A stretch of DNA of 64,000 nucleotides from a candidate division WOR-3 bacterium (GCA_037443805.1 JBBINQ010000007.1:12977-76976); one strand, 5' to 3'; positions 5,172 through 64,000 are shown, numbered from the stretch's first letter. Notes: a model not told the origin generated them from the letters alone. Made by a program: numbers and translations.

Positions 5172-5199
5172 TTGACAATAAATAAAAATTAGTTATAAT
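5172..5199 (+). promoter_or_regulatory. Sigma-70 type promoter, TTGACA-16-TATAAT, -10 ends 5 nt before ruvX ATG (leaderless or near-leaderless transcript)
   Basis: ttgaca at 5172-5177, tataat at 5194-5199, ATG at 5204/5210. Confidence 0.5.
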
Positions 5200-5203
5200 T
5201 TAA

Positions 5204-5632
5204 ATGATTATGAAGATTATGGCAGTGGATTATGGTAAGATGCGAATCGGCATTGCCCTTACTGACCCACTGGGCGTTATTGCCCAACCATATCTGACCA
5301 TTACTTATAATTCCCGAAAAGACCTTATCAAACGACTTAAGTTTATTAGTGAACAGAATAGCGTTGGACTCATTCTTATTGGTAATCCAGTTTCACTTGA
5401 TGGCAGAACAAATAAAATGTCTGAGGAGATCCACAGATTTGTTAGAGATTTAAAAAAATCATTAAAGATTGAGGTTCAATTATGGGACGAGCGATTTACG
5501 AGCCAGTATGCATTAAAAGTCTTAAAAGACCATGGTATAAAAAAGAAAAATTTAGATGAAATTGCTGCTTCTTTGATGCTTGAGGAATATTTGAGACAGA
5601 CAAAGAATAGACCCGAGCCGATAGAATGTTAA
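5204..5632 (+). CDS. ruvX: Putative pre-16S rRNA nuclease / Holliday-junction resolvase-like YqgF
   Basis: MKIMAVDYGKMRIGIALTD matches the RuvX N-terminus (lGlDlGtkriGvA). About 140 aa. Followed by mltG as in many genomes. Start may be 5210. Confidence 0.8.
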   Translation: MIMKIMAVDYGKMRIGIALTDPLGVIAQPYLTITYNSRKDLIKRLKFISEQNSVGLILIGNPVSLDGRTNKMSEEIHRFVRDLKKSLKIEVQLWDERFTSQYALKVLKDHGIKKKNLDEIAASLMLEEYLRQTKNRPEPIEC

Positions 5633-5636
5633 TTTT

Positions 5637-12678: not shown

Positions 12679-12706
12679 TTGACAATGTGCTTAAAATTAA
12701 TATAAT
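12679..12706 (+). promoter_or_regulatory. Sigma-70 type promoter TTGACA-16-TATAAT ending 5 nt before the rpsP ATG (leaderless)
   Basis: ttgaca at 12679-12684, tataat at 12701-12706, ATG at 12712. No Shine-Dalgarno sequence. Confidence 0.5.
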
Positions 12707-12711
12707 ATTAT

Positions 12712-12951
12712 ATGGTTAGAATTCGCTTAAGGCGTATGGGTAAACATAAGAGTCCTTTTTATCGGATTGTGGCAATAGATTCAAAAAAGGCAAGGGATGG
12801 TGAATACATAGAGAACCTTGGTCATTACGATCCCATTAAGAAGAATTTGCAATTAAAAAGGGATCGCATTGAATACTGGCTTTCTCAGGGAGCTAAGCCT
12901 ACCAATACGGTGGCTAAATTAATTGCAAAAGAAAAAGGAGGTTCATCATGA
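12712..12951 (+). CDS. rpsP: 30S ribosomal protein S16
   Basis: [30 protein letters not shown] is the canonical S16 N-terminus. Confidence 0.9.
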
Positions 12952-15377: not shown

Positions 15378-15570
15378 TGTCCTTTTCCCCCTTGACTTTG
15401 TTTATTTCACTGATATAATTCAATATTAAAGATATTATGGCTGGTTACAATAAAAAGACTGTACAGCAATATATGTTAAAAATTTCTAAGCAGTTAGAAT
15501 TAGTTTTTATTATCTTGGTCATATTATAAAATAATAGTTATGAATAAAATTTTCTAAAAGGAGGTTTAAA

Positions 15571-16203
15571 ATGATTGAAGGAATGGAAAAGACCTTGAAC
15601 CCTGGTGAAATGCTTTTCAATGAAGGGGATAAGGGTGATGTAATGTACTTAATCAAAGAAGGACAGATTAAGATAACCAAAGGTAAAGGACCTGATGAGA
15701 AAGTGCTGGCAGTTTTGAAAGAGGGCGATTTTTTTGGCGAAATGGCAATCATTGATGGTTCACCCCGTTCTGCAACTGCTACCGCAATTTCAAAAACCTC
15801 TTTATTGATTATAGATAAAGAGACTTTCAAATCCAAGATTCGGGAGAATCCGCTCATTGAATATATCCTTGAGACCCTTACCAAAAGGCTGCGCAATGCA
15901 GATGAGCAGATAAAACTTTTAACGATCAAAAGTGAAGAAAGGCGTGTGGTTGCTTATATAATTACTAAAGCAAAGGAGATCGGTAAGAGCACGGCTGAAG
16001 GTATTGAAATTACCCCTTTTTCTTTTGAGAGTATGGCGGTTACCACAGGCATTGAGTTGAGTAAAGTAAAGGATTATGTTGATAAATTATGCCAGGTTAA
16101 ACTCGTGGGTTTGAAAAACAATAGTCTTGTTATAAAAGGGATCGAAGACCTTGATGATTATCTGCGTTATATTGCCCTCAAAGAGAAATTTGAAAAACTA
16201 TAA
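15571..16203 (+). CDS. Crp/Fnr-family transcriptional regulator (cNMP-binding domain plus C-terminal HTH)
   Basis: cNMP-binding signature GDFFGEMAIIDGSPRSATA. C-terminal region (RVVAYII...ESMAVTTGIELSKVKDYVDKLCQVKLV) fits a Crp-type HTH. SD aaaggagg upstream. Confidence 0.75.
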   Translation: MIEGMEKTLNPGEMLFNEGDKGDVMYLIKEGQIKITKGKGPDEKVLAVLKEGDFFGEMAIIDGSPRSATATAISKTSLLIIDKETFKSKIRENPLIEYILETLTKRLRNADEQIKLLTIKSEERRVVAYIITKAKEIGKSTAEGIEITPFSFESMAVTTGIELSKVKDYVDKLCQVKLVGLKNNSLVIKGIEDLDDYLRYIALKEKFEKL

Positions 16204-25218: not shown

Positions 25219-26327
25219 TGCACCCTCAATATTGAAATCAGATTAATTTTAACAAATGAAAGTAAGGTCAATAATACAAGCATTAAAAGGACCAAAAACT
25301 TTCCTGTATCCTGTGCCCGCAGGGATGCGACCAGAACTGGTTCCCGTGTTAAATAAGCAGATGCGGCATATACTTCTTCTCCAAGAAGTGTATAATCACA
25401 CGCAGTGACAAAGAACGGTAATTGCAGAACCTGGTCAGTGCCGGCAATCTGCACTGCGCCGATCTGGTTACCAGTTTCTGCCATTAAAAGAGATTCAGCA
25501 AAAAATGGTCCAATGAAAAAATTTGTTGCCGGTCGCTCCCTGAGGATAATACCATTTATTGCTGCTGCATAACCGAATTGGGATTCGGTCAGATAACGAA
25601 CATAATCATCATTAAATTTATCAATTTTACCCTGGCTGATGAACGCCTGTTTAACCACTTCCCTTGCTACAGTATAGACGACCGGATAGCAATTTACCAC
25701 AATCAGAGGGTTTTCATAAATTGCTGCTTTTTTGGCAAGTTCACCAAGGATATTCATTGAGGCAATGGTTGATGGAAAGTCAATGTCACCTAAGCCCGGG
25801 ACATAAACGATTGGTTTTCCCATTTCAGTTGCCCTGCCTACTGCCTCTTCTATTGCATCAAGTCCGGTAATCTTTCTGATAAACAATTTTGTTCCTTTTT
25901 TTGCCCACACCATAAATAGTATCAAAAAAGACGAAAATACTATAATCGCTATTAACACATTCAATCTTCCTTTATGGAAAAATTGGGGAGATGATTGAAC
26001 AGCATTACTTATTGTATGATAATAAAGGCTATCCTGTTTCTGGACCGCAATGAGATAGATATACTTTTCATTGTCATTTACACTATTATCTTCATAACTT
26101 GTGGCTAATGGTCCGGCAAACCCTATCTTTTTAAATGAAGTATCTGTAACAGTGCGACGGAATATTACATAGCCGTCAATAAGGGTATCGCCTATTTGTT
26201 TCCAGTTAAGACTAATACATGAACCAGCATCATTTGGACGGTCACAAACAGTAAAATTTTCTAAGGAAAGAGAAAAAATAATAAATAGCCACACACCATA
26301 TTTTAGCCAAAAAAAGCAGTATGTCAA
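25215..26327 (-). CDS. Hypothetical membrane protein with a possible FN3-like extracytoplasmic segment and a central soluble domain
   Basis: 370 aa. N-terminal hydrophobic segment, internal TM ([17 protein letters not shown]) and C-terminal TM. First gene of a minus-strand cluster. Confidence 0.4.
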
Positions 26328-30684: not shown

Positions 30685-30768
30685 ATTGTATTCAAAACAA
30701 TCACAATGTCAACCTAATTTCTTTTTCTCATCAATTGACAATCTAAAATTTTTTGCTATAATCAACAA

Positions 30769-34436: not shown

Positions 34437-34552
34437 AAGTGTAGTAAAGGTTGATAAAACAAGAAATTGTTGCAAATTAAAAGATAGTTTTGTTAAATTC
34501 TAAGGCACATTACCCTTGACTTTATGACTTTATGGGATAAAATTTATATTAT

Positions 34553-39126: not shown

Positions 39127-39154
39127 TTGACTCGCGAGGAGAAATATTTATAAT
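39127..39154 (+). promoter_or_regulatory. Sigma-70 type promoter TTGACT-16-TATAAT ending 5 nt before the queC ATG (leaderless)
   Basis: ttgact at 39127-39132, tataat at 39149-39154, ATG at 39160. Confidence 0.5.
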
Positions 39155-39159
39155 TTTAT

Positions 39160-39810: not shown

Positions 39811-39890
39811 TGTAATAAATCGGGAACCATATTCTTCATTGAGAGTTATTGCAATTATTGACAATAAAAATAATATATATATAATATGCT

Positions 39891-40310
39891 ATGGATGCGG
39901 CAGGGTTTAGAGAGATATACGAGACAATGCAAAAAAACATAGAAGAGATTAAAACTATCTCCAGCAAGATTAACCGCTATAGTTCTGAAGATAAAATCCG
40001 TCAAAGTGAAAAGATTAAATATCTCTTTTATGGTTTAACCAAAACCCTTGTTGATGTGGGAAACAAAATTATCGTGGAAAATGATTATCGCACACCATTA
40101 AATAATGCAGATGTGTTTATCAGCCTTGCTGAGCACGATATAATTGCATCCAGCCTTGTGCCGGGTATTAAAAAAGCAGTACTGGTAATACCCAGGGTTA
40201 TGCAGAGTAATGCCGATGAAGTTTTTACAATCATTAAAGAAAGCATGGAATCAATCTGTAAATGTCTTGACTCGTTTGTGGTGTATTACGACCTGAAAGG
40301 TAAAGGCTAA
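39891..40310 (+). CDS. Hypothetical protein
   Basis: 139 aa, helical. No convincing HepT/DUF86 Rx4HxY motif. Confidence 0.35.
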   Translation: MDAAGFREIYETMQKNIEEIKTISSKINRYSSEDKIRQSEKIKYLFYGLTKTLVDVGNKIIVENDYRTPLNNADVFISLAEHDIIASSLVPGIKKAVLVIPRVMQSNADEVFTIIKESMESICKCLDSFVVYYDLKGKG

Positions 40311-41085: not shown

Positions 41086-42788
41086 TTACATTTTCTTTGC
41101 TTTAGAAGTTTTTCTACAGAAAGGGTATTTACTACATCATCCTTTTCCAGCCAGCCCCGCCGGCAGGTAGCAACACCAAATTTCATCCATTTTAATTCAT
41201 CAATACCATGGGCATCTGTGCCAATACTGACTTTGATACCGAGTTCCTTACAGCGTTTTAAATTTACATCGTTCAGGTCAAGACGGTCAGGATAGGCATT
41301 ACATTCAAGAAAAGTTTTTGTTTCGGCTGCCTTTTTCATAACCTTTTCAATATCAAGGACATAGCCTTCGCGTTTTGATATCAACCTGCCCGTAGGATGA
41401 CCGATTATATCAACATAAGGGTTTTCCATAGCAGAGCAGAGCCTTTCTGTAACATTTTTTGAAAATCCCTGGTGAATGGAAGCCACAACCATATCAAACA
41501 TCTTCAAAATTTTATCCGGATAATCGAGCCTTCCATCAGCAAGAATGTCCACCTCAATACCTTTAAGGATCTTAAAATTTTTAAATTTTTTGTTTAAATT
41601 ATCAATCTCTTCCCATTGTTTATAAATGCGTTCCACTTCCATACCGTGGGCATATTTTGCCGAGCGTGAATGGTCAGTCACAAGGATATATTCATAACCC
41701 AGTTCCTGTGCAATTGTGGCAAGTTCTTCAATTGTTGCGGTAGAATCTGAATAATTGGAGTGCATTTGTAGGTCACCTTTTATATCAGATAATTCTAAAA
41801 GAACGGGCAAGCTATTTTTCAATGCAGATTCAACTTCGCCACGGTCTTCTCTTAATTCTGGAGGTATCCATTGGAGCCCCAGTGCTTTGTATATATCTTC
41901 TTCATTCTCTCCGGCAATGGCTTTATCTCCTTTAAATAATCCATATTCATTCAATTTCCATTTTTTACTTACGGCAATACCCCGCAATTTAACATTGTGT
42001 GCCTTTGAACCAGTGAAATACTGTAATGCTGCACCATAGGACTTTCTATCCACAATCCTGATATCCACTTGCACACCACCCTCTACGATAATTGAACTTT
42101 TTGTCTCTCCTGCAGATAATACCTGTTCTGCTTTTGGATATTGAGTAAAAGTTTCTACTATCTTTTTGTGGTCTTTGCCAGTCACCAGTATATCAATATC
42201 GCCAATAGTTTCCTTCCATCTGCGCAATGAACCGGCTGGCGAAATCTTTGAAACAGGGGCATTTTTTTTGAGGTATTCAACCACGCTTGAGGCGATGCTT
42301 TCTGCGACCGCAATTGATAATCGCTCATGGCTCCGTTCATATAATTCAATACCCTTTTTTATGTTTTCCACTTTTTTTTCTCCCATCTGCGGTAGTTTAG
42401 CAAGACTGCCATCTTCAATTACTTTTTTTAAATCTGCTAAATTCTTGACACCGAGATGTTTATTTGCCAGGGCAAGGGTCTTGGGTCCGAGATTCTGGAT
42501 ATTGAGCAATTCAAGGAGCGCAGGGGGAATATCTTTTGTTGCTTCAAGATATTTTTGCATTTTGCCGGTCTTTAGATATTCTTCAATCTTTTTTGCCATA
42601 CCTTCACCAATGCCGGCAAGGTTTTTTAATCTGTTGGTTTTTAAAAGTTCTTCAATATCTTCAGTCAGCTCATCAATGATTCTTGCTGCCTTGCGATATG
42701 CTACAACTCGGAATACATTTTCTCCTTTATATTCAAGGGCGTCGGCAATCTGATTAAAGATACTGGCAATCTCTTTATTTTTTTTCAT
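41076..42788 (-). CDS. polX: DNA polymerase X family protein with C-terminal PHP phosphoesterase domain
   Basis: IASIFNQIADALEYKGENVFRVVAYRKAARII Pol-beta-like N-terminus. HhH motifs. C-terminal PHP (HSNYSD...HGMEVE...GTDAHG). Confidence 0.85.
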   Translation of the reverse strand: MKKNKEIASIFNQIADALEYKGENVFRVVAYRKAARIIDELTEDIEELLKTNRLKNLAGIGEGMAKKIEEYLKTGKMQKYLEATKDIPPALLELLNIQNLGPKTLALANKHLGVKNLADLKKVIEDGSLAKLPQMGEKKVENIKKGIELYERSHERLSIAVAESIASSVVEYLKKNAPVSKISPAGSLRRWKETIGDIDILVTGKDHKKIVETFTQYPKAEQVLSAGETKSSIIVEGGVQVDIRIVDRKSYGAALQYFTGSKAHNVKLRGIAVSKKWKLNEYGLFKGDKAIAGENEEDIYKALGLQWIPPELREDRGEVESALKNSLPVLLELSDIKGDLQMHSNYSDSTATIEELATIAQELGYEYILVTDHSRSAKYAHGMEVERIYKQWEEIDNLNKKFKNFKILKGIEVDILADGRLDYPDKILKMFDMVVASIHQGFSKNVTERLCSAMENPYVDIIGHPTGRLISKREGYVLDIEKVMKKAAETKTFLECNAYPDRLDLNDVNLKRCKELGIKVSIGTDAHGIDELKWMKFGVATCRRGWLEKDDVVNTLSVEKLLKQRKCNQK

Positions 42789-42861
42789 TAGTTAAATTAT
42801 ATTTACGCAGGTGTGGTTGTCAAGATAAGGGATTTTTATCGGGCGACAAAATTTGTTACAC

Positions 42862-42889
42862 TTGCAAAAAATTAAAAAATTGTTATAAT
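42862..42889 (+). promoter_or_regulatory. Sigma-70 type promoter TTGCAA-16-TATAAT ending 7 nt before the Sir2 ATG (leaderless)
   Basis: ttgcaa at 42862-42867, tataat at 42884-42889, ATG at 42897. Confidence 0.45.
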
Positions 42890-42896
42890 TCTGAAA

Positions 42897-43619
42897 ATGA
42901 TAGAAAAGGCAGTTGAGATTTTAAAAGATACTGAAAGATTGTTTGCTCTTACTGGTGCTGGCATTTCAGCAGAAAGCGGCATTCCTACTTTTCGTGGTAA
43001 GGATGGTCTGTGGAAAAATTATTCAGCCACTGACCTTGCTACACCTGAGGCATTTATTAGAGATCCAGAACTGGTATGGGAATGGTATCGCTGGCGACAG
43101 GGAATAATTCTCAAAGCAAATCCCAATCCTGCGCACTATGCCCTGGTAGATTTAGAAAATCATTTTATTGAATTTTTTCTCTTGACTCAGAATGTTGACA
43201 ATCTTCATCAACGTGCTGGCTCAAGGAATGTTTATGAATTGCATGGCAATATTTTTTTTACACGATGTTCTCAGTGCAATAAAATTGATAACATTGAAAA
43301 TGCAAAGTTTGACCCCCTGCCCCATTGTGAATGCGGAGGTCTGTTAAGACCTAATGTTGTCTGGTTCGGTGAATCCATTCCCCAGGATATCTGGCAGGAA
43401 TCAATAAAATTCTTAAGTTCGGCTGATTGCGCAATAATCTGCGGGACATCAGGCGTGGTCTGGCCCGCGGCAGCAATACCAGAGATTGCCAAAGATTATG
43501 GAGTAAAGACCATAGAAATAAATTTAGAGGCAACGCCCATAACACCGGTTGTTGATGTCAGCATATTATCGCCAGCAGGCAAAATTTTGCCAGAGATTGT
43601 AAAAAGACTAAAAAAATAA
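42897..43619 (+). CDS. cobB: NAD-dependent protein deacylase (Sir2 family)
   Basis: GAGISAESGIPTFRG. QNVDNLH. Zn ribbon CSQC...CECGG. Confidence 0.85.
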   Translation: MIEKAVEILKDTERLFALTGAGISAESGIPTFRGKDGLWKNYSATDLATPEAFIRDPELVWEWYRWRQGIILKANPNPAHYALVDLENHFIEFFLLTQNVDNLHQRAGSRNVYELHGNIFFTRCSQCNKIDNIENAKFDPLPHCECGGLLRPNVVWFGESIPQDIWQESIKFLSSADCAIICGTSGVVWPAAAIPEIAKDYGVKTIEINLEATPITPVVDVSILSPAGKILPEIVKRLKK

Positions 43620-43635: not shown

Positions 43636-43663
43636 TTGACTTTTCATAGAATTTCAGTATAAT
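43636..43663 (+). promoter_or_regulatory. Sigma-70 type promoter TTGACT-16-TATAAT ending 8 nt before the rplM ATG
   Basis: ttgact at 43636-43641, tataat at 43658-43663, ATG at 43672. Confidence 0.45.
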
Positions 43664-43671
43664 TATAGTCT

Positions 43672-44100
43672 ATGAAAACAAAGGTTTTAAAGAAATCTGA
43701 AATAAAACATAATTGGTATGTGATTGATGCGCAGAATAAGATTCTGGGTAGAATGGCAACAAGAATTGCCAGAATCTTAATGGGTAAAGGCAAACCACAA
43801 TATTCACCCAATGTGGATTGTGGGGATTATGTGGTTGTCTTGAATGCTGATAAATTTAAGGTTACTGGTAATAAAATGGAAGATAAAATCTATTATCGGC
43901 ATTCTTTTTATCCAGGTGGCTTAAAAGCAATAAATTTGAAACTTATGCTGGAAAAAAATCCAAAGAGGGTAATATATCACGCAGTGAGTGGTATGTTGCC
44001 TAAAAATAAGTTTCGTGCGCGCAGGCTAAGAAGATTAAAACTTTATCTGGGTACTGACCACCCACATAAAGCACAATCACCCAAAGAAATACAGTTATAG
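43672..44100 (+). CDS. rplM: 50S ribosomal protein L13
   Basis: KHNWYVIDAQNKILGRMATRIARILMGK start typical of L13. Confidence 0.9.
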   Translation: MKTKVLKKSEIKHNWYVIDAQNKILGRMATRIARILMGKGKPQYSPNVDCGDYVVVLNADKFKVTGNKMEDKIYYRHSFYPGGLKAINLKLMLEKNPKRVIYHAVSGMLPKNKFRARRLRRLKLYLGTDHPHKAQSPKEIQL

Positions 44101-50360: not shown

Positions 50361-50894
50361 TTATTTTAATTCCTCAATTGAAATTTCGGTATTAGTATAG
50401 ATACATATCTGTGCTGCGATTTTTATTGATTCTTCAACGATTTCTTTTGCTGAGAGTTCTGTATATTTAAATAGGGCACGGGCAGCAGCCAGGGCATAAG
50501 GCGCACCCGAACCTATGGCAACAATGCCATCATCAGGTTCAATTACATCGCCTGCTCCTGAGATAATATACGAATGGTCTTTATCAAGGATTGCAAGAAA
50601 TGCCTCAAGTCGGCGTAGAATCTTATCCTGGCGCCAGTCCTTGGCAAGTTCAACCACACTGCGCGGTAGATTACCCCTGAATTCTTCAAGTTTTGCCTCA
50701 AATCTTTCAAAAAGTGTTAAGGCATCTGCAGTAGCACCGGCAAATCCAACGAGGATTTTGTCATTATACATTTTACGAATCTTTTTTGCCCGTTGTTTCA
50801 TTACTGTTTCGCCAGTTGTCACCTGACCATCGCAGCCGATTGCAACCTTACCATTACGCCGAATTCCTAAAATAGTAGTTGCCTGCATACTCAA
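50361..50894 (-). CDS. hslV: ATP-dependent protease subunit HslV
   Basis: [22 protein letters not shown]-terminal Thr active site. [14 protein letters not shown]. Confidence 0.8.
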
Positions 50895-50928
50895 TTATAA
50901 TTAATAAAATCCGTCTGTCAATAACCTC

Positions 50929-50956
50929 TTGACAGATCAAAAAAATAATATAATAT
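50929..50956 (+). promoter_or_regulatory. Sigma-70 type promoter TTGACA-16-TAATAT ending 7 nt before the methyltransferase ATG
   Basis: ttgaca at 50929-50934, taatat at 50951-50956, ATG at 50964. Confidence 0.4.
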
Positions 50957-50963
50957 ATAGCCA

Positions 50964-51734
50964 ATGATACAAAAAAATAATAAGTTAAAATTTAAAACCA
51001 ATAGAAAAACAAGGGAGAAAGATTTTCATAATAAAATTTTTGAAACTGGTGTGCATAATAAATTGACAGTATTCTATTCAATTAATGAAAGTATTTATAA
51101 AGATTTTATGGAACTATTATCACAATGTGTGGCAAAGAGAGTATTAGAAATTGGCTGTGGTTTAGGTAATTATGCAATTCAAATAGCCATCAAAGGAGCA
51201 GATGTTACTGCAATTGATATTTCTAACTATGCAATAAAACAGGCACAAGTGATTGCCAACGAGGAAAATCTTAAAATAGATTTTAGAATTATGGATGCTG
51301 AAAAATTAGAGTTTAAAAGTAATGAATTTGATCTGGTTTACGGTCTTGCTATCTTACATCATCTTAACCTTAAAAAAGTTATTCCTGAAATTCGGCGTGT
51401 GCTAAAACCCGGTGGAAAAGCGGTTTTTAGAGAACCCATGGGACATAATCCATTTATTAATTTATTCCGTTTTTTGACACCTGGATTACATTCAAGGGAT
51501 GAACATCCTTTAAAAATGAAGGATTTATATTTCATTGCTGAAAATTTTCCAAATTTTAAGTTTAAGTTTTATTACCTTTTCACCCTTATTGCGGCACCTT
51601 TTTATAAATTATCCTGCTTCAACTCATTGAAAAAATTCTTTGAAAGATTGGATAATATAATTTTTACAACTTTTCCGTGGTTCAAACAATTTAGTTGGCA
51701 GGTATTAATAATTTTAGATTATAGACAAAAGTGA
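50964..51734 (+). CDS. Class I SAM-dependent methyltransferase
   Basis: Motif I VLEIGCGLGNYA. LKPGGKAVF post-I. Confidence 0.7.
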   Translation: MIQKNNKLKFKTNRKTREKDFHNKIFETGVHNKLTVFYSINESIYKDFMELLSQCVAKRVLEIGCGLGNYAIQIAIKGADVTAIDISNYAIKQAQVIANEENLKIDFRIMDAEKLEFKSNEFDLVYGLAILHHLNLKKVIPEIRRVLKPGGKAVFREPMGHNPFINLFRFLTPGLHSRDEHPLKMKDLYFIAENFPNFKFKFYYLFTLIAAPFYKLSCFNSLKKFFERLDNIIFTTFPWFKQFSWQVLIILDYRQK

Positions 51735-51835
51735 GATAAATTAAAATCGGATACTATTTTCCGATGAATCGTCATAAACTCAATATTGATTATTAAAAAA
51801 ATTTGGTTATAATTTACAGAATAAGAGGAGGTAAT

Positions 51836-52732
51836 TTGAAAGTTTTAATTTCTGACCCGATTGCTAAAGAAGGTATTGAAATTTTAAAAAAAAGTGGTTT
51901 TGAAGTTGTGGAGAAAACAGGAATGGCACCTGAGGAACTGGTTAAGACTATCCCTGATTTTGATGCAATAATTGTGCGGAGCGCAACGAAGGTGACAAAA
52001 GAAGTGATTGAGGCAGGAAAGAAATTAAAGGTTATTGGCAGGGCTGGTGTTGGACTGGATAATGTTGATGCTGAAGCGGCAAAGGCAAAAGGAATAAAAG
52101 TTGTAAATACACCAGCAGCAACATCCATCTCTGTAGCAGAACTTGCTCTGGGAATGATGCTTTCTGCGGCAAGAATGATTCCTCAGGCAACTGTGTCAAC
52201 AAAAGCAGGTAAATGGGAGAAGAAAAAATTTCATGGATTTGAACTTTATGGTAAGACCCTTGGCATCATTGGTATTGGCAGGATCGGTTCTGAACTGGCA
52301 AAAAGGGCAAAGGCAATGGGTATGGAAGTTGTTGCGTATGACCCATATATCAAATCATCAGAATTTGCCAAGATTGTGGACTTTGATACCCTGCTTAAAA
52401 AATCAGACTATATCTCTTTGCATATCCCTAAAACAAAGGAGACTGCACACTTATTGAATAAATCTGCCTTTGATAAGATGAAGACCGGGGTCGTCATTGT
52501 CAACTGTGCACGGGGCGGTGTTATTGATGAAGATGCACTCTATGAGGCGATAATCACGGGTAAGGTAAGGGTTGCCTGCCTTGATGTCTATGAGGTGGAA
52601 CCTGCAAAGGAGCATAAACTATTCAGCCTTGAGCAGGTTATTCTAACTCCTCACATTGGTGCGCAAACTGAAGAAGGACAACAGCGGGCAGGTGTTCAGA
52701 TTGCAGAATTGGTCAGGGATGCATTAAAATAA
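51836..52732 (+). CDS. serA: D-3-phosphoglycerate dehydrogenase-like 2-hydroxyacid dehydrogenase (short form, no ACT domain)
   Basis: LKVLISDP start (TTG with SD agaggagg). NAD motif GIIGIGRIGSELAKRA. Catalytic His region PHIGAQT. Confidence 0.75.
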   Translation: MKVLISDPIAKEGIEILKKSGFEVVEKTGMAPEELVKTIPDFDAIIVRSATKVTKEVIEAGKKLKVIGRAGVGLDNVDAEAAKAKGIKVVNTPAATSISVAELALGMMLSAARMIPQATVSTKAGKWEKKKFHGFELYGKTLGIIGIGRIGSELAKRAKAMGMEVVAYDPYIKSSEFAKIVDFDTLLKKSDYISLHIPKTKETAHLLNKSAFDKMKTGVVIVNCARGGVIDEDALYEAIITGKVRVACLDVYEVEPAKEHKLFSLEQVILTPHIGAQTEEGQQRAGVQIAELVRDALK

Positions 52733-55015: not shown

Positions 55016-55906
55016 CTATTCATTACGATGCGCAGTTTTATTCAGGATAATATAATTCAAGGGGTCTACGGGAACGCCAGCAATTCTTATTTCATAATGA
55101 AGATGAGGTCCAGTAATTTTGCCGCTTGTTCCGATAAACCCAATGATGTCTCCCCTTTTGACCGATTGCCCATTAATGACATTTGGATTCTGCAAGTGTG
55201 CATACATTGTAGTTAAATCTTTATTATGATTGATTTCTATAATAATGCCAAAGTCATTTGTTCTCTGCACTTTTTTCACAACACCATCTGCAGGAGCAAT
55301 GACTGGTGTGCCTATGGGTGCTGCAATATCAATTCCTTCATGCATCTTTACTGTTCCGGTAAATGGGTCTGGACAATGACCAAAACCGCGCATAAACCAG
55401 CCGTTAACCGGTGCAATAGATGGTATTAAATCCTTCAAATTTTGTTTTTGTTCAAGATAATTCAGGATTGCTTTATTTGTTAAATAATGGTCATTTGTCT
55501 GCAAAAGTAATTCATCAAGAACCATTGATATCTGATTTAAATTTCTATTTTCTATAGAATCATTTGGTATTTTATCTTCAGTCTTATAATTGATTACTGT
55601 TTCAAGGGGTTTTAATTGTGCAAAGTATTTTAAGGCGGTATCTTTTTTTGTTAGGCTATCAAGATTTATGTTTATTGATTTTATTTCGGCTTCTATAAAT
55701 TCAAGTTCTTTACGGACAATATTATTTTCATAGTTTAATTGCTGTATTTTTTTATAATCTACCCTACTGCGAGCAAAATTGATTAATCCGTATACAAAAA
55801 GAATCAATATTGCAATAATAACAATAATAACTAAGGCAAGAATACTCCAGTTGACAATTAAATTTAATGTCTTGTTTTTCCGTTCATTAATAAAAATAAT
55901 TTCCAA
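55016..55906 (-). CDS. M23-family (LytM-type) metalloendopeptidase with N-terminal TM and coiled coil
   Basis: HEGIDIAAPIGTPV...GSTGKITGPHLHYEIR has the HxxxD and HxH zinc motifs. Confidence 0.8.
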   Translation of the reverse strand: MEIIFINERKNKTLNLIVNWSILALVIIVIIAILILFVYGLINFARSRVDYKKIQQLNYENNIVRKELEFIEAEIKSININLDSLTKKDTALKYFAQLKPLETVINYKTEDKIPNDSIENRNLNQISMVLDELLLQTNDHYLTNKAILNYLEQKQNLKDLIPSIAPVNGWFMRGFGHCPDPFTGTVKMHEGIDIAAPIGTPVIAPADGVVKKVQRTNDFGIIIEINHNKDLTTMYAHLQNPNVINGQSVKRGDIIGFIGTSGKITGPHLHYEIRIAGVPVDPLNYIILNKTAHRNE

Positions 55907-55972
55907 AGATGCTCCTGAATCTATTATATATCTGGCTAATTCAAAGTCAAGGGGGATTAAAAAGATATTCTA

Positions 55973-56000
55973 TTGACTTTAATACATTGCTATATATAAT
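55973..56000 (+). promoter_or_regulatory. Sigma-70 type promoter TTGACT-16-TATAAT ending 5 nt before the Yip1-like gene ATG (leaderless)
   Basis: ttgact at 55973-55978, tataat at 55995-56000, ATG at 56006. Confidence 0.5.
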
Positions 56001-56005
56001 ATTTT

Positions 56006-56680
56006 ATGGAAAACATAATTAATATTTTTCTAAATCCAGGCTCAGTATTTAAAAGAATAAAAGAAAAGCCAGAATGGCTATTACCATTGTTGGTCGTGCT
56101 TGTTGCTCTCGCAATAATAGCGATCCTGACAATTTCAGCAACACAGGATTTGATTACTGCTCAGCAGATAGAAGCACTTAAACAGCGCAATATGACCGAT
56201 GAACAGATTGAACAGGCTTTGAAATTTTCTTCAGGTCCAATATTGTTCATTTTTGGTGGTCTTGGTGCAATTATCAATACTGTGGTTATCCTCTTGATTT
56301 TTTCTGCGCTGTTGAATCTCTTTATTCCAATGTTTGGTGGCGAAGGTTCATTTAAAATGGTCTTTTCAGTTGTTTCTTTTTCTGCTCTTGTAAAAATACC
56401 CGGGAACATAATACGGTTAATACTGGTCCTTTTAAAGCATTCACTTCAGGTAAGTACATCCATTGCCCTTTTTATTCCCAATCTTAATACCCATTCAATT
56501 GCTTATAGACTATTGAACCAATTTGATTTTTTTATATTCTGGGAAATGTGCCTTGTTGCCTATGGTATACACATTACCAATAGTTTGAAAAAGGAGAATA
56601 GTTATATTCTGGTCTTTGCTATCTGGCTTGCATCAATTCTCTTGAGTATTGCGCTTGGTGGAATATTTGGCGCAAAATAG
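56006..56680 (+). CDS. Yip1-domain membrane protein
   Basis: IFLNPGSVFKRIKEKPEWLLPLLVV start and a 5-TM layout typical of bacterial Yip1/DUF1282 proteins. Confidence 0.55.
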   Translation: MENIINIFLNPGSVFKRIKEKPEWLLPLLVVLVALAIIAILTISATQDLITAQQIEALKQRNMTDEQIEQALKFSSGPILFIFGGLGAIINTVVILLIFSALLNLFIPMFGGEGSFKMVFSVVSFSALVKIPGNIIRLILVLLKHSLQVSTSIALFIPNLNTHSIAYRLLNQFDFFIFWEMCLVAYGIHITNSLKKENSYILVFAIWLASILLSIALGGIFGAK

Positions 56681-56820
56681 AAACAGATAAAAAGAACAAC
56701 GCAGAGTAGAATAATTTAGCTGAACATATATATTAATCCATAATAAAAATCATAGGAATTTTTTTTATAATATCGTATACTTGATTTTAGTAGATGATTG
56801 TGTATAATACTTAAATCCAT

Positions 56821-58065
56821 ATGTGGATATTAATTTATTTAACATTTGAAATTGATTCTCTGTCTTTAAATCAGGTAATTGATATTGCATTAAGACAGAG
56901 TCCGAACTATTTAGAGTCACGGGAGAACCTGGCAAAGTCCCGTGTGCAATTTTATCAAGCACTTTCTTTTCTATTGCCCACCAATACAACGACTGGAACC
57001 TGGACACATAGTGAATTTAATAATATACAAACTGAAAAGTATACAGGCTCAACAAATTTCTCTATGCCGGTTTTTGATTTAGATGTGATCAGCTCAATTG
57101 TTATTGCAAAGGGGCAGGAAAAAGGGAGTGCAATACAGCACGAGCAGACCATAGCCAATTTAATTCTTAATCTAAAAAAATCTTATTATAATCTCATTAC
57201 GGCGAATGAACTGCTGAATTCGTCACAAAAGGCACAGGAGCGAGCACTGGAGAATAAAAAACTTGTGGAAACAAAATATAATCTCGGTTCAGCATCAAAA
57301 TTGGAATTACTTCAGGCTGAAGCCTTCTATCTACAGACTTTGCAAAATGTTTCTCAGGCAAAGACACTGGAAATGCAGGCGCAACAGGAATTAAAAGCAA
57401 TGCTCAATATTGAACACAAAATTTATCCGCTGGATTCACTAATTATCCCTGATACTTTTTTATTACCCTCTATTGATTCATTAAGGCTGATTTTAGAAAA
57501 GGTAAATTTAAGTATTAAACTGGCAAAACAGATGAGCAGTTTGTCAAAAGTAAATCTCTGGTTTTCTATGTTTGCTTTTTTACCTAAGATTTCACTCTTT
57601 TATGGATACAGTGCAAGCCTTGATTCCTTTGTCTTTGATTTTGATGTGTGGCGCGAACATTCCACAAAAAATTATGGTGTGAATATTACATTTCCGATAT
57701 TTGAAATTAAAAATTTGATCTTTAATTATCTTACGGCAAAGAAGGATATGAGGATTAAGGAATACAATAAGCAGAGTGCAATCCTTGAATCAGAAAAGTT
57801 ATTACATACGACTTATTATAGTCTGCAGGAATCAATTGACAAATTAAATTTTGCCAGAAAAAGTTTAGAGGTGGCTGAAGAGGCAATCATACTCGGACGC
57901 GAGCAGTATAGCCTGGGTGTAATCTCTCTTCTTGATTTTTTACGCACAGAAGAGGAATACTACAATGCCCGGATTAATCTATCAAGGGCACTCAGTGATT
58001 TTTATACTAATCAGGCAATGCTCTCTTTTTTGTTAGGAAAGTTAACCATTGAGGAGTCAAAATGA
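56821..58065 (+). CDS. TolC-like outer-membrane efflux protein
   Basis: Two-repeat coiled-coil architecture with equatorial motifs (LLQAEAFYLQ, LDFLRTEEEYYNARINL). Precedes the MacA/MacB genes. Confidence 0.7.
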   Translation: MWILIYLTFEIDSLSLNQVIDIALRQSPNYLESRENLAKSRVQFYQALSFLLPTNTTTGTWTHSEFNNIQTEKYTGSTNFSMPVFDLDVISSIVIAKGQEKGSAIQHEQTIANLILNLKKSYYNLITANELLNSSQKAQERALENKKLVETKYNLGSASKLELLQAEAFYLQTLQNVSQAKTLEMQAQQELKAMLNIEHKIYPLDSLIIPDTFLLPSIDSLRLILEKVNLSIKLAKQMSSLSKVNLWFSMFAFLPKISLFYGYSASLDSFVFDFDVWREHSTKNYGVNITFPIFEIKNLIFNYLTAKKDMRIKEYNKQSAILESEKLLHTTYYSLQESIDKLNFARKSLEVAEEAIILGREQYSLGVISLLDFLRTEEEYYNARINLSRALSDFYTNQAMLSFLLGKLTIEESK

Positions 58066-61112: not shown

Positions 61113-61151
61113 AGATAACCCGAAAGATATTTAATTATCAAGTTTGATGGA

Positions 61152-61179
61152 TTGACGCAGAAATTTTCCTGAATATAAT
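61152..61179 (+). promoter_or_regulatory. Sigma-70 type promoter TTGACG-16-TATAAT ending 6 nt before the ATG of the GGDEF-STAND gene (leaderless)
   Basis: ttgacg at 61152-61157, tataat at 61174-61179, ATG at 61186. Confidence 0.5.
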
Positions 61180-61185
61180 TTAATA

Positions 61186-64000
61186 ATGAAGCGAGAAGAG
61201 ATTTACTATGATGAGTTGACCGGAATTTATAACCGGCGATTTTTACACTACTGGATGGACAATGAAATCAAGAGGGCGAATCGTTTTGCGACAAAATTTG
61301 GAATTATTATGATTGACCTTGATAATTTCCGTGAGGTCAATAACAATTATGGTCATCTTGAAGGTGATAGGGTGTTAATTGAATTTAGCAAATTCCTGAA
61401 AAATAACATAAGGGAAGTAGATAATCTTGTGCGCTATGGTGGTGATGAGTTTATTATCCTTGTTCCCAATACTGATACCTCAGGAGTTTTAGAACTTGCG
61501 CAGAGGATTCTCTCCAATTTAAATAAGAGTTCTATTACTGGTTATAAAATTTTCTGTAGTATTGGTTTTGCGGTCTATCCTGATGATGGCGCCAATCTTG
61601 AGACTTTAATAAATCAGGCAGACCGATTAATGTATCAGGCAAAGAAAGATGGCAAAAATCGTATTGGGTTAAAAGCTGAAGTTATCAGGAAATTAGAGAT
61701 TCCGGTAAAAGTGCTCGTAGGCAGAGAACAAGAACTTGGACAATGTCTGCGTCAATTAAAAGAATATAATACACTTTTTATCAGTGGCGAAGCAGGTGTG
61801 GGTAAGACCAGGCTTGCCCTGGAAATAAAAAATCTATTTCCTGACTGTGTGTATTTAAGGGCAAACTCCTATGCCGCATTGACAACAGTTCCATACCATC
61901 CCTTCCATAATATGTTCAAGGAGATTGTTATGCAGGATTTTGTTCTTACCCAGCGGGTATTAAAACAGATGCCGGAGATTATGCGCCTTGAAATAATGAA
62001 ATTATTACCGGAAGATAAAATCGTTCCTGCAAAAATTGAAGGGCTTGATAAATTCCGTCTTTTTGAAAGTGTCAATATGTTTTTTAATATACTCACTGAA
62101 TTATCATTACCGGGCCAGATTATTCTTCTTATGGATGATCTACACTGGACCGACCGTTCAAGCTGTGAATTATTGGACTTTGTAATAAGAAGTGCCTCCA
62201 CCAATTTTAAAATTCTGGGCACATATCGCACTGAAGAGATAAAAAATGCATCAATCTTTGAATTTTTAGGAATATGGGCAAGGGAAAATTTATATTCAAA
62301 ACTTGAATTATTGCCTTTAAGTGAATCCCAGACCTTTAAATTTCTTGAATTGGTAATGGGCAGTGTTTCTCAAGCTACGGCAAAATTTATTTATAACCTG
62401 AGCGGTGGCAATCCATTCTATACCGAAGAGATACTTCGTGAACTGGAGAGGCAGAACAAGATTTTTTATAATGGTAAAGAATGGGTTATTCTTATAGAAC
62501 GGGAATTAAAAATTCCTTCAAGCATTGAATCAACAATACACCGTAAAATAGAGTTTCTTGATACTGAAACAAAAGAAATTTTAAATATCGCGGCAGTCTA
62601 TGGTCAGGAGTTCAGCGATGAAATACTTGCCCTTTGCGCACAGAAAAATGTTGGTGAAATAATGGATGCCATTGACCATTTAATTAAACTGGGTTTTATT
62701 AAGGTAAGGGGAAGCGAACTCTTCTTTTTCAGTGAGGATATTGTTAGACAAATAGTCTATAAAAATATCAATCGGGCAGATTTGCTGAAATATCACCGGC
62801 AGGTAGGAGATACAATTGAAAAATATTTTCATAGTAGTCTTCTCATTTATTATGAGCAACTTGCCCATCATTTTACCATTGCCAATGACCCAGCAAGGGC
62901 ACTTTATTATTCGCGGAGGGCAGGGATAAAATGTATGGAAAATTATGCACATGAGCAGGCAGTAGGATTTTTTACAAATGCCCTGAAGTTTGAAGATAAC
63001 ATTGAAGAGATATTTAAGATAAAATCTGACCTTTCTGAAATCTATTTTTTGATGGGAAAGAGTGATAAGGCAATAGATAATCTTAATGCCTGTTTAAAAA
63101 TAAATCCTCAGGACTATAAAATTTACTACAAGCTTGGTCAGATCAATGAAAATATTGGTGATTACAAAAAGGCACTGGGCTATTTTAAACAGGGTCTGAA
63201 AATAACTGCGCAATCCAGTTCATCCTATCAATTCAGGGCCGGTATAGTCTGGATTTACACAAGAATGGGACAGTATCTCAAGGCAAAAAAGGAGTGCGAA
63301 CAACTATTAAAAAAGGAAAAACAGATACCAAAACAGGAACTTGCTATTATTCTGATCACTTATGGAGTTGTTTTATTACACCTTGGTGACCTTGAAGGGT
63401 CAATTTCATATTTTAAAAAGGCACTGGATATTCGTCAGAAATTGGGCGACAAAAAAGGAATGGCTGCCTGCTATCTGGATATGGCGGTCGTTTACCAACA
63501 GCAACTGAATTTTTCTATCAGTGAAGAATACTATAAAAATGCACTTAAACTCTATGAAGAGATTGGCTATCAAGCAGGTATTATGATTACGCTTTTAGAT
63601 CTGGGCTCACTCTATTTTCATTACAACTTAATTAAGGCTGAAGAATATTGTAATAAAGGGCTGAGAATTGCAAAATTAACTGGAGCAAAGCGTGACATTG
63701 TTTTCCTTTATGATAATCTCGGGTCAATAAGTCTTCGTCGCTTAATGCTTGATGAGGCTTTAAGCAGTTTTAAAAGAGCACTCCAATATGCTGAGGAAAC
63801 AGATTTTACTGAGGGTAAGAATTTTATTAATATTCACTTAAGTGAATATTATCGGGAAACCGGTAAGAAAAAGAAAGGTTTTGTTCATTTAAAAAAGGCA
63901 TATATATATGCAAAGAAATTGAATTTAAAACAATTTATTTATGATTGTCAATTTGAAGAGATTGAGTATTTGCTCCTGAATAAGAACTTTAAAAAGGCAA
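61186..64000 (+). CDS. Multidomain signalling protein with N-terminal GGDEF diguanylate cyclase, STAND/AAA_16 P-loop NTPase and C-terminal TPR repeats (3' partial, runs off the window; absent from the ORF track because it has no stop)
   Basis: Hand translation from ATG 61186 is open to the window end. GGDEF with I-site (REVDNLVRYGGDEFIIL). Walker A LFISGEAGVGKTRLA. Walker B-like IILLMDDLHWTD. At least 8 TPR-like repeats after about residue 560. Confidence 0.75.
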   Translation, partial: MKREEIYYDELTGIYNRRFLHYWMDNEIKRANRFATKFGIIMIDLDNFREVNNNYGHLEGDRVLIEFSKFLKNNIREVDNLVRYGGDEFIILVPNTDTSGVLELAQRILSNLNKSSITGYKIFCSIGFAVYPDDGANLETLINQADRLMYQAKKDGKNRIGLKAEVIRKLEIPVKVLVGREQELGQCLRQLKEYNTLFISGEAGVGKTRLALEIKNLFPDCVYLRANSYAALTTVPYHPFHNMFKEIVMQDFVLTQRVLKQMPEIMRLEIMKLLPEDKIVPAKIEGLDKFRLFESVNMFFNILTELSLPGQIILLMDDLHWTDRSSCELLDFVIRSASTNFKILGTYRTEEIKNASIFEFLGIWARENLYSKLELLPLSESQTFKFLELVMGSVSQATAKFIYNLSGGNPFYTEEILRELERQNKIFYNGKEWVILIERELKIPSSIESTIHRKIEFLDTETKEILNIAAVYGQEFSDEILALCAQKNVGEIMDAIDHLIKLGFIKVRGSELFFFSEDIVRQIVYKNINRADLLKYHRQVGDTIEKYFHSSLLIYYEQLAHHFTIANDPARALYYSRRAGIKCMENYAHEQAVGFFTNALKFEDNIEEIFKIKSDLSEIYFLMGKSDKAIDNLNACLKINPQDYKIYYKLGQINENIGDYKKALGYFKQGLKITAQSSSSYQFRAGIVWIYTRMGQYLKAKKECEQLLKKEKQIPKQELAIILITYGVVLLHLGDLEGSISYFKKALDIRQKLGDKKGMAACYLDMAVVYQQQLNFSISEEYYKNALKLYEEIGYQAGIMITLLDLGSLYFHYNLIKAEEYCNKGLRIAKLTGAKRDIVFLYDNLGSISLRRLMLDEALSSFKRALQYAEETDFTEGKNFINIHLSEYYRETGKKKKGFVHLKKAYIYAKKLNLKQFIYDCQFEEIEYLLLNKNFKKA

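Follow-up and report, generated by a model that had tools for sequence, protein, structure and literature searches.

Consensus promoters with a 16-bp spacer abut start codons in a WOR-3 bacterium and suggest leaderless mRNAs

Promoters and genes of the window

The window, by which we mean the whole 64-kb stretch of DNA that was analysed, belongs to a genome with a GC content of 36-37% that uses TGA as a stop codon. We scanned it for TTGACN and TATAAT boxes separated by 16 nt, and the offset was taken as the number of nucleotides from the last T of the −10 box to the start codon. In total, we found 13 exact TTGACN-N16-TATAAT matches, compared to ~0.04-0.1 in shuffled sequences. With the same exact boxes and other spacers, one match was found for N14, one for N17 and none for N13, N15 or N18-21. 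At ten of the 13 exact sites, an ORF that is long or conserved begins 4-8 nt past the −10 box (binomial P ~3e-14). This P is approximate: its background is the 2.5% of window positions with the start codon of an ORF of 130 aa or more at an offset of 4-8 nt, and rpsP (79 aa) is among the ten although it lies below that cut-off. The enrichment at gene starts is stronger than the first-pass annotation of this DNA had claimed.

When one or two mismatches were permitted, the same geometry was found at 15 of the ~67 window genes, with offsets of 4-9 nt. These genes, hereafter called leaderless-type, account for about two thirds of the recognisable promoters of the window (~15 of 22). They are listed here with boxes, offset and start codon:

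5172..5206, plus strand: ruvX; TTGACA-N16-TATAAT (5172-5199), 4 nt, ATG at 5204
12679..12714, plus strand: rpsP (S16, 79 aa); TTGACA-N16-TATAAT, 5 nt, ATG
26292..26327, minus strand: DUF6754 membrane protein; TTGACA-N16-TAAAAT, 5 nt, GTG
30676..30712, minus strand: GNAT/FemAB-like gene; TTGACA-N16-TACAAT, 6 nt, second ATG (30678)
30735..30771, plus strand: family-2 glycosyltransferase (GT2); TTGACA-N16-TATAAT, 6 nt, GTG
34516..34555, plus strand: N6/N4 DNA methylase; TTGACT-N16-TAAAAT, 9 nt, ATG
39127..39162, plus strand: queC; TTGACT-N16-TATAAT, 5 nt, ATG
39858..39893, plus strand: conserved 139-aa protein; TTGACA-N16-TATAAT, 5 nt, ATG
42786..42823, minus strand: PolX-PHP DNA polymerase; TTGACA-N16-TATAAT, 7 nt, ATG
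42862..42899, plus strand: Sir2-family deacylase; TTGCAA-N16-TATAAT, 7 nt, ATG
43636..43674, plus strand: rplM (L13); TTGACT-N16-TATAAT, 8 nt, ATG
50886..50921, minus strand: hslV; TTGACA-N16-TATAAT, 5 nt, ATG
50929..50966, plus strand: class I SAM methyltransferase; TTGACA-N16-TAATAT, 7 nt, ATG
55973..56008, plus strand: Yip1-domain membrane protein; TTGACT-N16-TATAAT, 5 nt, ATG
61152..61188, plus strand: GGDEF-STAND-TPR protein; TTGACG-N16-TATAAT, 6 nt, ATG

The gene names given earlier were checked against Pfam, and the 139-aa protein has no match in a Pfam profile search. Most of the nine genes originally named as having a −10 box 5-8 nt before the start codon fit this geometry, with two corrections: the SAM methyltransferase fits only if TAATAT is taken as the −10 box, and the 30-aa ORF after the tRNA (15437) starts 17 nt from the −10 box. 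The range of 5-8 nt describes the bulk of the sites, the extremes being 4 nt (ruvX) and 9 nt (DNA methylase). GT2, PolX, hslV, the 139-aa ORF, the DNA methylase, DUF6754 and the GNAT-like gene had been missed. In an alternative register of the SAM methyltransferase promoter, an exact TATAAT gives an N14 spacer and an offset of 9 nt. The first ATG of the GNAT/FemAB-like gene (30684) adjoins the −10 box, and the DUF6754 gene heads a five-gene unit on the minus strand.

The same type of promoter also precedes genes that have a leader:

5111..5165, minus strand: leadered contrast; exact consensus promoter, 24 nt with AAGGGGG, ATG at 5113
15392..15573, plus strand: leadered contrast, Crp-like gene; exact consensus promoter 3′ of tRNA-Arg, AAGGAGG Shine-Dalgarno (SD) site, start at 15571
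51786..51838, plus strand: leadered contrast, serA-like dehydrogenase; TTGATT-N16-TATAAT, 22 nt with AGGAGG, TTG start
55904..55950, minus strand: leadered contrast, M23 peptidase; exact consensus promoter, 16 nt with AGGAG, TTG start
56781..56823, plus strand: short-leader case, TolC-like outer-membrane protein; TTGATT-N16-TATAAT, 12 nt, ATG

The TolC-like gene has no SD within its 12-nt leader. The Crp-like gene at 15571 is a more probable target of the promoter at 15392 than the 30-aa ORF. The ~145-nt region past this promoter matches no Rfam family, the tRNA being the sole Rfam match in the window.

The boxes conform to the sigma-70 (sigma-A) arrangement, in which TTGACA and TATAAT lie 17 ± 1 bp apart and co-oriented upstream of genes, here with 16 bp; a spacer of this length is within the functional range and is not the usual optimum. 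A T is often present four bases 5′ of the −10 box (position −16). One could argue that such strings arise by chance in AT-rich intergenic DNA, where TATAAT-like sequences are common at this GC content, or that they represent a dispersed repeat or a regulator site, with the genes being transcribed by read-through from upstream. However, the shuffles and the low-GC outgroup DNA, in which 123 kb contained a single exact site, rule out AT-richness as the cause. Because the spacer sequences are unrelated to each other, the boxes are not a repeat family, and an origin from a repeat or mobile element is likewise ruled out. Moreover, every site points in the same direction as its downstream gene, identical boxes are found at sensible distances upstream of SD-led genes and tRNA genes, and several sites lie between divergent genes, where read-through is impossible. 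This explanation is effectively refuted.

Start codons and Shine-Dalgarno sites

As had been claimed, the leaderless-type starts lack SD sites: an SD core of at least 4 nt at 3-12 nt upstream was found in none of the 15 genes of the window. The classical SD sites reported for dapF, the Crp-like gene, hsp20, tsf, frr and serA were confirmed. In the window, ~22 genes have an SD of at least 5 nt, and seven of the 18 AGGAGG occurrences sit 4-7 nt before real gene starts. The operon rplM-rpsI-rpsB-tsf-pyrH-frr, headed by a leaderless-type gene, harbours SD sites at four of its five internal genes (rpsI, rpsB, tsf and frr). This pattern agrees with the mixed regime proposed by the first-pass annotation, in which predicted leaderless and SD-led genes coexist.

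Among the leaderless-type genes of the window and five genome relatives (n=37), we found 30 ATG, seven GTG and no TTG; with 20 ATG from metagenome relatives added, the counts are 50, seven and zero. TTG starts do occur at SD-led window genes, namely rpsB, the serA-like gene and the M23 peptidase gene.

The absence of SD sites would be misleading if the promoters were real and the start codons mis-called, with in-frame starts further downstream that are preceded by SD-like sequences and belong to ordinary leadered mRNAs. Alternative starts do exist in a few genes. In ruvX, a second in-frame ATG is located at 5210 (10 nt from the −10 box), and either ATG may be the start since the Pfam RuvX profile begins at residue 3; its offset is the least certain of the set. 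GT2 has an alternative ATG (30784) 21 nt past the −10 box and its Pfam domain begins at residue 8, so that the GTG start is plausible and ambiguous. The GTG start of DUF6754 is probable, again with some ambiguity. In rpsP, codon 9 is an ATG preceded by AAGG. However, this AAGG lies inside a conserved coding motif and is the only SD of at least 4 nt ahead of any alternative start. The alignment of S16 with solved S16 chains begins at residue 1-2 and that of L13 with solved L13 covers 1-141, both being colinear with the solved proteins from the first residue. N-terminal Pfam domains begin 2-20 residues from the called starts. Those of QueC, GGDEF (residue 7), Yip1, HslV (Proteasome profile, residues 2-172) and PolX begin at residues 2-7 and would be truncated by a downstream start. 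In addition, the N-terminal peptides are conserved in relatives as far as the called start, and similarity ends there. Mis-called starts are thus a very improbable explanation, and the start codons of the leaderless-type genes are correctly placed, with ruvX, GT2 and DUF6754 ambiguous.

Conservation of the geometry and the predicted transcription start

We found 15 related loci with the same promoter-to-start geometry. In 131 kb of DNA from relatives, 29 exact sites with N16 and five with N17 were present, 20 of which are located 5-9 nt before starts. In 562 kb from outgroup lineages, which includes the low-GC DNA mentioned above, there were only three exact sites at any spacer, none of them at a start. 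The pattern is also absent at the more distant WOR-3 loci L007, L003 and L021, and the geometry is therefore a trait of a clade and not of the phylum. An identical L13 protein was not found in public assemblies by exact look-up.

The position of the promoter relative to the start codon is conserved gene by gene. In all ten metagenome relatives (L13 identity 75-91%), rplM is preceded by TTGACT-N16 and a −10 box with an offset of 7 nt to the ATG; this box is TATAAT in nine of them and TATACT in L015. The queC orthologues have their own promoters with offsets of 6 nt (L006, GTG) and 8 nt (L008, ATG). Each of the five orthologues of the 139-aa gene (L001, L004, L005, L006 and L008) has an offset of 5 nt, and the PolX orthologues have offsets of 7, 6, 6, 6 and 7 nt. 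The Sir2 orthologues have TTGAAA-N16-TATAAT at 5-7 nt, with TTGATA-N17 in L006. The arrangement at the DNA methylase gene is the same in L001. Across queC, the 139-aa gene, PolX, Sir2 and rplM, the offset is kept within 1-3 nt while the spacer sequences diverge; only queC and Sir2 vary by more than 1 nt.

Taking window and relatives together, 63 exact sites have a 16-bp spacer and ten a 17-bp spacer. Five of these ten represent one orthologous site within the protease-like gene at 47984-49474 (49224 in the window; also L012, L014, L015 and L028), and a second promoter class with N17 based on these matches was rejected, as they are a single intragenic site. Three others (L002, L004 and L005) are the same promoter, that of an orthologous 388-aa gene, and look genuine.

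In the window and the five genome relatives (n=37), offsets of 4, 5, 6, 7, 8 and 9 nt occur 1, 13, 14, 5, 3 and 1 times, respectively. With the modal offsets of 5-6 nt (27 of 37), the first base of the start codon, a purine, falls exactly on position 6-7 past the −10 box, and a T precedes the start codon in 21 of the 37 cases, which corresponds to the Y−1 R+1 context favoured for initiation. In 49 bacteria with experimentally mapped start sites, these cluster around the position 7 bp past the −10 box and tend to be purines, and a 17-bp spacer, optimal in E. coli, predominates (PMC12641261). Because these offsets bring the A or G of the start codon to the place where RNA polymerase normally starts, we consider it very likely that the genes with these boxes are made as leaderless mRNAs. 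The leaderless reading of the first-pass annotation is supported by the enrichment of the spacing, the fixed distance, the lack of SD sites, the verified start codons, the purine as predicted first base and the presence of the pattern in relatives and not in outgroups. The scan that the first-pass annotation had named as a possible refutation thus clearly favours the leaderless reading, as the motif spacing is enriched at starts.

A variant is that most of these promoters initiate 1-5 nt ahead of the start codon, yielding very short leaders. In its favour, nine of the 37 offsets are 7-9 nt, the mapped sites centre on the 7th base (PMC12641261), and in D. deserti leaders of 1-5 nt were found on 13% of mRNAs (PMC4007540). 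For rplM and the DNA methylase, whose offsets are 8-9 nt, the leader may indeed be 1-3 nt long instead of absent. As a general explanation we regard this as unlikely, given the modal offsets and the T at −1. Moreover, leaders of up to 5 nt still follow the leaderless pathway (PMC4007540), which would make it a refinement rather than a different mechanism.

Under the leaderless reading, the boxes would be the housekeeping (sigma-70/sigma-A type) promoters of the WOR-3 bacterium, with putative recognition by sigma factor and RNA polymerase. Their architecture is unusually strict: TTGACW, exactly 16 bp, TATAAT, often with the T four bases before the −10 box, which ends 5-8 nt (extremes 4-9) before the start codon at roughly two in three recognisable promoters of this bacterium and its close relatives. 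RNA polymerase normally initiates ~7 nt (6th-9th base) past the −10 box with a preference for purines, so that the predicted 5′ end of the transcript is the first base of the ATG or GTG, or lies no more than 1-3 nt upstream of it. The resulting mRNAs would lack both a 5′ UTR and an SD site, and by analogy to characterised systems we infer that the ribosome and initiator tRNA bind the 5′-terminal AUG or GUG directly. Genes inside operons, and a smaller part of the first genes, instead use classical AGGAGG-type SD sites, on very short leaders (~10-20 nt).

Comparison with known leaderless systems

On a wider scale, we moderately favour the view that this clade of the uncultured phylum WOR-3 (Caldifarciminota) expresses most of its transcription units leaderless, including the ribosomal-protein operons headed by rpsP and rplM, from promoters that come close to a perfect consensus and share a lineage-specific spacer of 16 bp and a conserved T at −16. 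An AT-rich candidate phylum would then join the few bacterial lineages known to rely heavily on leaderless initiation, and operon heads could be predicted straight from the sequence. The 16-bp preference may point to a lineage-specific geometry of sigma factor and RNA polymerase, and would imply a small change in their spacing. The genes could offer clean natural cases for the coupling of promoter geometry and start site, with perfect consensus, fixed spacing and 5-6 nt between −10 box and ATG. The geometry could also be used to correct start calls in WOR-3 metagenome-assembled genomes: in the window, a longest-ORF rule sets four starts inside the promoter (26327, where the TTG is that of the −35 box, 50894, 30684 and 51803). 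No concept is overturned by these findings. A literature search found no paper on leaderless genes, Shine-Dalgarno use or transcription starts in WOR-3/Caldifarciminota, and none on leaderless mRNAs in metagenome-assembled genomes.

WOR-3 is often grouped near the FCB lineages; in the NCBI taxonomy, it is the phylum Caldifarciminota, placed only in Pseudomonadati. The Bacteroidota/FCB type (GeneMarkS-2 group B) is similar in that many genes lack an SD. However, in group B genomes every gene is preceded by an A-rich non-SD motif and the mRNAs are leadered (PMC6028130), whereas here the genes without an SD have a promoter in that position and others carry a true AGGAGG. Compared to the E. coli-type sigma-70 promoter (TTGACA-17 bp-TATAAT, start 7 bp past the −10 box), the hexamers are the same and the position of the putative start is compatible. 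The differences are the spacer (16 bp preferred over the 17-bp optimum, with the counts given above), the very large number of perfect-consensus promoters (13 in 64 kb) and the absent or very short leaders.

Deinococcus, a high-GC genus of an unrelated phylum, provides another parallel. As described in the passages of the D. deserti study on leaderless genes (de Groot et al. 2014, PMC4007540), the majority of mRNAs (60%) are leaderless, with a −10 motif just upstream of the start codon, and many start codons were re-annotated. The leaderless starts are 83% ATG, 17% GTG and 0.3% TTG, compared to 81%, 19% and 0% here. In D. deserti these were established by dRNA-seq, 5′-RACE and proteomics, whereas ours are predicted from sequence. 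The same passages do not describe a stereotyped −35 box at N16 (PMC4007540).

A known class of this kind is GeneMarkS-2 group C (e.g. Mycobacterium tuberculosis and Streptomyces), in which first genes of operons are leaderless with a Pribnow (−10) box 6-8 nt from their starts and the remaining genes are SD-led; many operons are predicted to be leaderless, and ignoring the pattern leads to wrong start calls (PMC6028130). The first-pass annotation had called the mixed regime a notable property of this organism. The geometry is real, and its novelty is tempered by the fact that mixed genomes are an established class (PMC6028130). This organisation is already known from group C, Deinococcus and Actinobacteria. 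So far, nearly all described cases of group C are high-GC Actinobacteria and Deinococcus or code-4 Mycoplasma-like genomes, and its code-11 members are almost all high-GC (MetaGeneMark-2 preprint), in contrast to ~37% GC here. If the leaderless reading is true, an AT-rich lineage with genetic code 11 would be of group C type. Furthermore, in group C the motif is no more than TANNNT and the −35 box is weak, whereas the promoters described here have a full consensus −35 box and TATAAT at 16 bp. The novelty lies in the lineage with its low GC content, in a −35 box that matches the consensus in full, and in a spacer fixed at 16 bp.

Consensus promoters at gene starts in the window

We searched the window for exact TTGACN-N16-TATAAT, with N16 denoting the number of base pairs between the −35 and −10 boxes, and found 13 sites, compared to 0.04 in dinucleotide-preserving shuffles. 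When exact boxes were combined with spacers of 13-21 bp, 13 sites had N16, one N14, one N17 and none any other spacer (shuffles: ~0.1 exact sites per spacer length). With one mismatch allowed, N16 was still the top spacer class (11 sites versus a shuffle mean of ~4; N21 had 8); with two, its signal was drowned in background. For 10 of the 13, a long or conserved ORF has its start codon 4-8 nt past the final T of TATAAT. At this offset, the start codon of an ORF of 130 aa or more is found for just 2.5% of all window positions, giving P ~3e-14, which is approximate because rpsP (79 aa), under the 130-aa cut-off, is counted among the ten.

A gene-centred scan together with the one-mismatch list added five near-consensus cases, so that the leaderless-type geometry (−10 box 4-9 nt before the start codon) is present in 15 of ~67 window genes. 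By our own tally, ~15 of 22 recognisable window promoters are of this type.

Leaderless-type genes in the window, with promoter and distance from the −10 box to the start codon
ruvX: exact N16 site, 4 nt (10 nt to the next ATG)
rpsP (79 aa): exact N16 site, 5 nt
queC: exact N16 site, 5 nt
139-aa ORF: exact N16 site, 5 nt
Yip1 gene: exact N16 site, 5 nt
hslV: exact N16 site, 5 nt
GT2 glycosyltransferase: exact N16 site, 6 nt, GTG start
GGDEF-STAND gene: exact N16 site, 6 nt
PolX polymerase: exact N16 site, 7 nt
rplM: exact N16 site, 8 nt
Sir2 gene: TTGCAA-N16-TATAAT, 7 nt
GNAT/FemAB-like gene: TTGACA-N16-TACAAT, 6 nt to the second ATG
DUF6754 gene: −10 box TAAAAT, 5 nt, GTG start
DNA methylase: −10 box TAAAAT, 9 nt
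SAM methyltransferase: TTGACA-N16-TAATAT, 7 nt

The first-pass annotation had named at least nine genes with TTGACA/TTGACT, a 16-nt spacer and TATAAT 5-8 nt before the start, without Shine-Dalgarno (SD) sites. These counts bear out and extend the pattern, Pfam confirmed the gene names, and the gene-centred window scan detected no SD core of at least 4 nt at SD distance in any of the 15 genes, in agreement with the claimed absence. Promoter identity, geometry and the lack of SD sites are direct observations. Two of the nine examples need correction: the spacer of the SAM methyltransferase is 14 nt when measured to its exact TATAAT, N16 existing only in the TAATAT register, and the small ORF after the tRNA (15437, 30 aa) starts 17 nt past the −10 box.

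The called starts are in line with protein alignments. The alignment of S16 with its solved counterparts begins at residue 1-2 and L13 residues 1-141 align with solved L13, while Pfam domains begin at residue 2 (HslV), 3 (PolX HHH_8 and RuvX), 5 (QueC), 6 (Yip1), 7 (GGDEF), 8 (GT2) and 20 (Sir2). Extension upstream would run into the promoter and is impossible otherwise, and starts further downstream would truncate N-terminal Pfam domains. The individual starts of ruvX, GT2 and DUF6754 are ambiguous. Under a longest-ORF rule, four starts fall within promoter elements.

Longest-ORF starts within promoter elements and their promoter-based corrections
26327: TTG that is the −35 box; corrected to 26294
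50894: TTG overlapping the −10 box; corrected to 50888
30684: ATG abutting the −10 box; corrected to 30678
51803: TTG overlapping the 5′ end of the serA −10 box; corrected to 51836

Conservation of geometry and spacer length among relatives

Relatives and outgroups (loci numbered L001 onwards) were drawn from a genome scan with QueC, one genome per species, and a metagenome scan with L13. The QueC scan assigns the window to candidate division WOR-3. By QueC identity, L001 (97%) is almost the same organism as the window, and L002-L008 share 65-78%. Across L002-L008 (~78 kb) there are 21 exact N16 and 4 exact N17 sites, which all fall in L002, L004, L005, L006 and L008 and are mostly followed by an ORF start after 5-8 nt. 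The offsets of orthologues are kept while the spacer sequences diverge: 5, 5, 5, 5 and 5 nt for the 139/140-aa gene, 7, 6, 6, 6 and 7 nt for PolX, 7, 5, 6, 6 and 7 nt for Sir2 and 8, 8 and 7 nt for rplM. queC is operon-internal in L002-L005, whereas in L006 (6 nt, GTG start) and L008 (8 nt, ATG) it is preceded by a separate promoter of matching geometry whose spacer sequence is unrelated. The 139-aa protein (39891-40310) has no Pfam match and is conserved in L001, L004, L005, L006 and L008, in each of which a separate consensus promoter ends exactly 5 nt ahead of its ATG.

The L13 query yielded a gradient of relatives. In all ten metagenome loci with 75-91% L13 identity, rplM is preceded by TTGACT-N16 and a −10 box (TATAAT in nine, TATACT in L015) ending 7 nt before the ATG. 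Counted without redundancy, these loci together (131 kb) contain 29 exact N16 and 5 exact N17 sites, and an ORF starts 5-9 nt after 20 of them. In 69 outgroup loci (50-59% L13 identity, 562 kb, GC 28-70%) we found three exact sites with any spacer and none at a gene start. AT-richness as the source of the geometry was rejected, as a single exact site occurs in the 18 outgroup loci of low GC (123 kb). The geometry is also absent from the stretches examined of three more distant WOR-3-like loci, L007 (CP070664.1), L003 and L021 (65-75% QueC or 68% L13 identity). The trait is thus real and heritable and limited to a clade within the WOR-3 phylum, which NCBI currently names Caldifarciminota. In two loci of an unrelated lineage (L066 and L068; GC 52%, 57% L13 identity), TTGACA-N17-TATAAG at ~7960-8000, upstream of rplM, ends 10 nt before the ATG and may be an independent short-leader case.

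Across the window and all relatives, 63 exact consensus sites have a 16-bp spacer versus 10 with 17 bp. A 17-bp spacer predominates in 49 species analysed (PMC12641261) and is the optimum in E. coli, whereas promoters of the WOR-3 clade mainly have 16 bp. This preference may stem from a sigma/RNA polymerase geometry particular to the lineage. Five of the ten N17 sites are one orthologous intragenic site (TTGACA-N17-TATAAT, window 49224-49252 (+), within the coding sequence of gene 47984-49474), conserved in four orthologues (L012 10061, L014 15794, L015 5899 and L028 15786); it is either a conserved-peptide coincidence or an internal promoter.

Further promoter details were observed. Position −16, four bases ahead of the −10 box, is a T in 11 of the 13 window promoters and in 27 of 34 overall (for example 5190, 12697 and 39145); this T is out of register with the usual TGn or TRTG extended −10 motif. 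Five promoter pairs are divergent and back-to-back (5138-5199, 50894-50956, 55923-56000, 30685-30762 and 42796-42889), with −35 boxes 6, 7, 22, 22 and 38 bp apart, respectively. In the two tightest, the −35 boxes are arranged as an inverted repeat (AGTCAA-n6-TTGACA and TGTCAA-n7-TTGACA), and therefore two polymerases may compete for binding. In relatives, consensus promoters also end 9-20 nt before the mature 5′ end of tRNA-Lys/tRNA-Leu genes, which would give tRNA precursors with very short 5′ leaders (~2 nt for tRNA-Leu in L019).

tRNA-proximal promoters in relatives
L004 8414-8451
L005 10789-10828
L008 10460-10508
L017 839-884
L019 2289-2252

The exact N16 promoter at L016 3525 (+) has no ORF start (at least 75 aa) within 40 nt and no tRNA after it, and may drive a non-coding RNA.

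Predicted transcription starts and SD-led genes

When the window and five genome relatives were pooled (n=37), the offset was 4 nt in one case, 5 nt in 13, 6 nt in 14, 7 nt in five, 8 nt in three and 9 nt in one. Start codons at these sites are 30 ATG, 7 GTG and no TTG, directly preceded by T in 21 of 37 cases; metagenome relatives add another 20 ATG starts. Every one of these start codons therefore opens with a purine, which occupies the 6th-7th position past the −10 box. In 49 bacteria, mapped start sites centre on 7 bp past the −10 box, with a purine bias (PMC12641261). As the best explanation, we infer that transcription begins at the start codon itself or no more than ~3 nt away, with ribosome recruitment through a 5′-terminal AUG or GUG. 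As far as sequence analysis can tell, the leaderless reading is supported.

The mixed leaderless/SD regime proposed earlier also holds, with classical SD sites in use alongside the 15 leaderless-type genes. Of the 18 AGGAGG hexamers on both window strands, seven have a real gene start 4-7 nt downstream (the Crp-like gene, dapF, rpsI, rpsB, hsp20, the serA-like gene and DUF1015), and the gene-centred scan found an SD of at least 5 nt in ~22 window genes. SD-led genes are mostly operon-internal, such as rpsI, rpsB, tsf and frr downstream of leaderless-type rplM, and TTG starts occur among them (rpsB, the serA-like gene and the M23 peptidase). Leadered first genes have very short leaders of ~10-20 nt. 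The remaining three of the 13 exact sites lie ahead of leadered genes.

Exact sites at leadered genes
5165 (−): 24 nt with AAGGGGG, then ATG
55950 (−): 16 nt with AGGAG, then a TTG start
15392 (+): directly after tRNA-Arg

The promoter at 15392 (+) more probably serves the SD-led Crp-like gene at 15571, ~145 nt downstream, than the 30-aa ORF (15437-15529) in between. The 15392-15570 stretch has no Rfam match and could be a long leader or encode a small protein or a novel RNA.

Comparison with known systems

Our literature search found no paper tying WOR-3 to leaderless mRNAs or SD usage. The first-pass annotation considered the regime a notable property; the geometry is confirmed, and conceptually it is not new, as the class is known from GeneMarkS-2 group C, in which a Pribnow box precedes first genes by ~6-8 nt and SD sites occur elsewhere (PMC6028130). 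This group comprises 1028 of 4769 bacteria, mainly Actinobacteria and Deinococcus-Thermus, while FCB-group genomes mostly belong to group B, in which the sites are non-SD (PMC6028130). The WOR-3 clade thus joins an already established class of mixed leaderless/SD genomes as a further case, and its geometry is of use in annotation and in comparative studies of how translation is initiated. In Deinococcus deserti, experimentally mapped leaderless genes have 83% ATG, 17% GTG and 0.3% TTG starts, closely resembling the usage in the WOR-3 clade, and leaders of up to 5 nt still take the leaderless pathway (PMC4007540). According to the MetaGeneMark-2 preprint, code-11 group C genomes are almost all high-GC, and the low-GC group C genomes described there are code-4 and Mycoplasma-like. 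In contrast to the high-GC code-11 members, the WOR-3 clade is low-GC (36-40%), uses TGA as a stop (24 of 67 stops) and has full consensus −35 and −10 boxes. Its distinctive traits are the very high density of near-perfect consensus promoters, 13 in 64 kb, and the 16-bp spacer.
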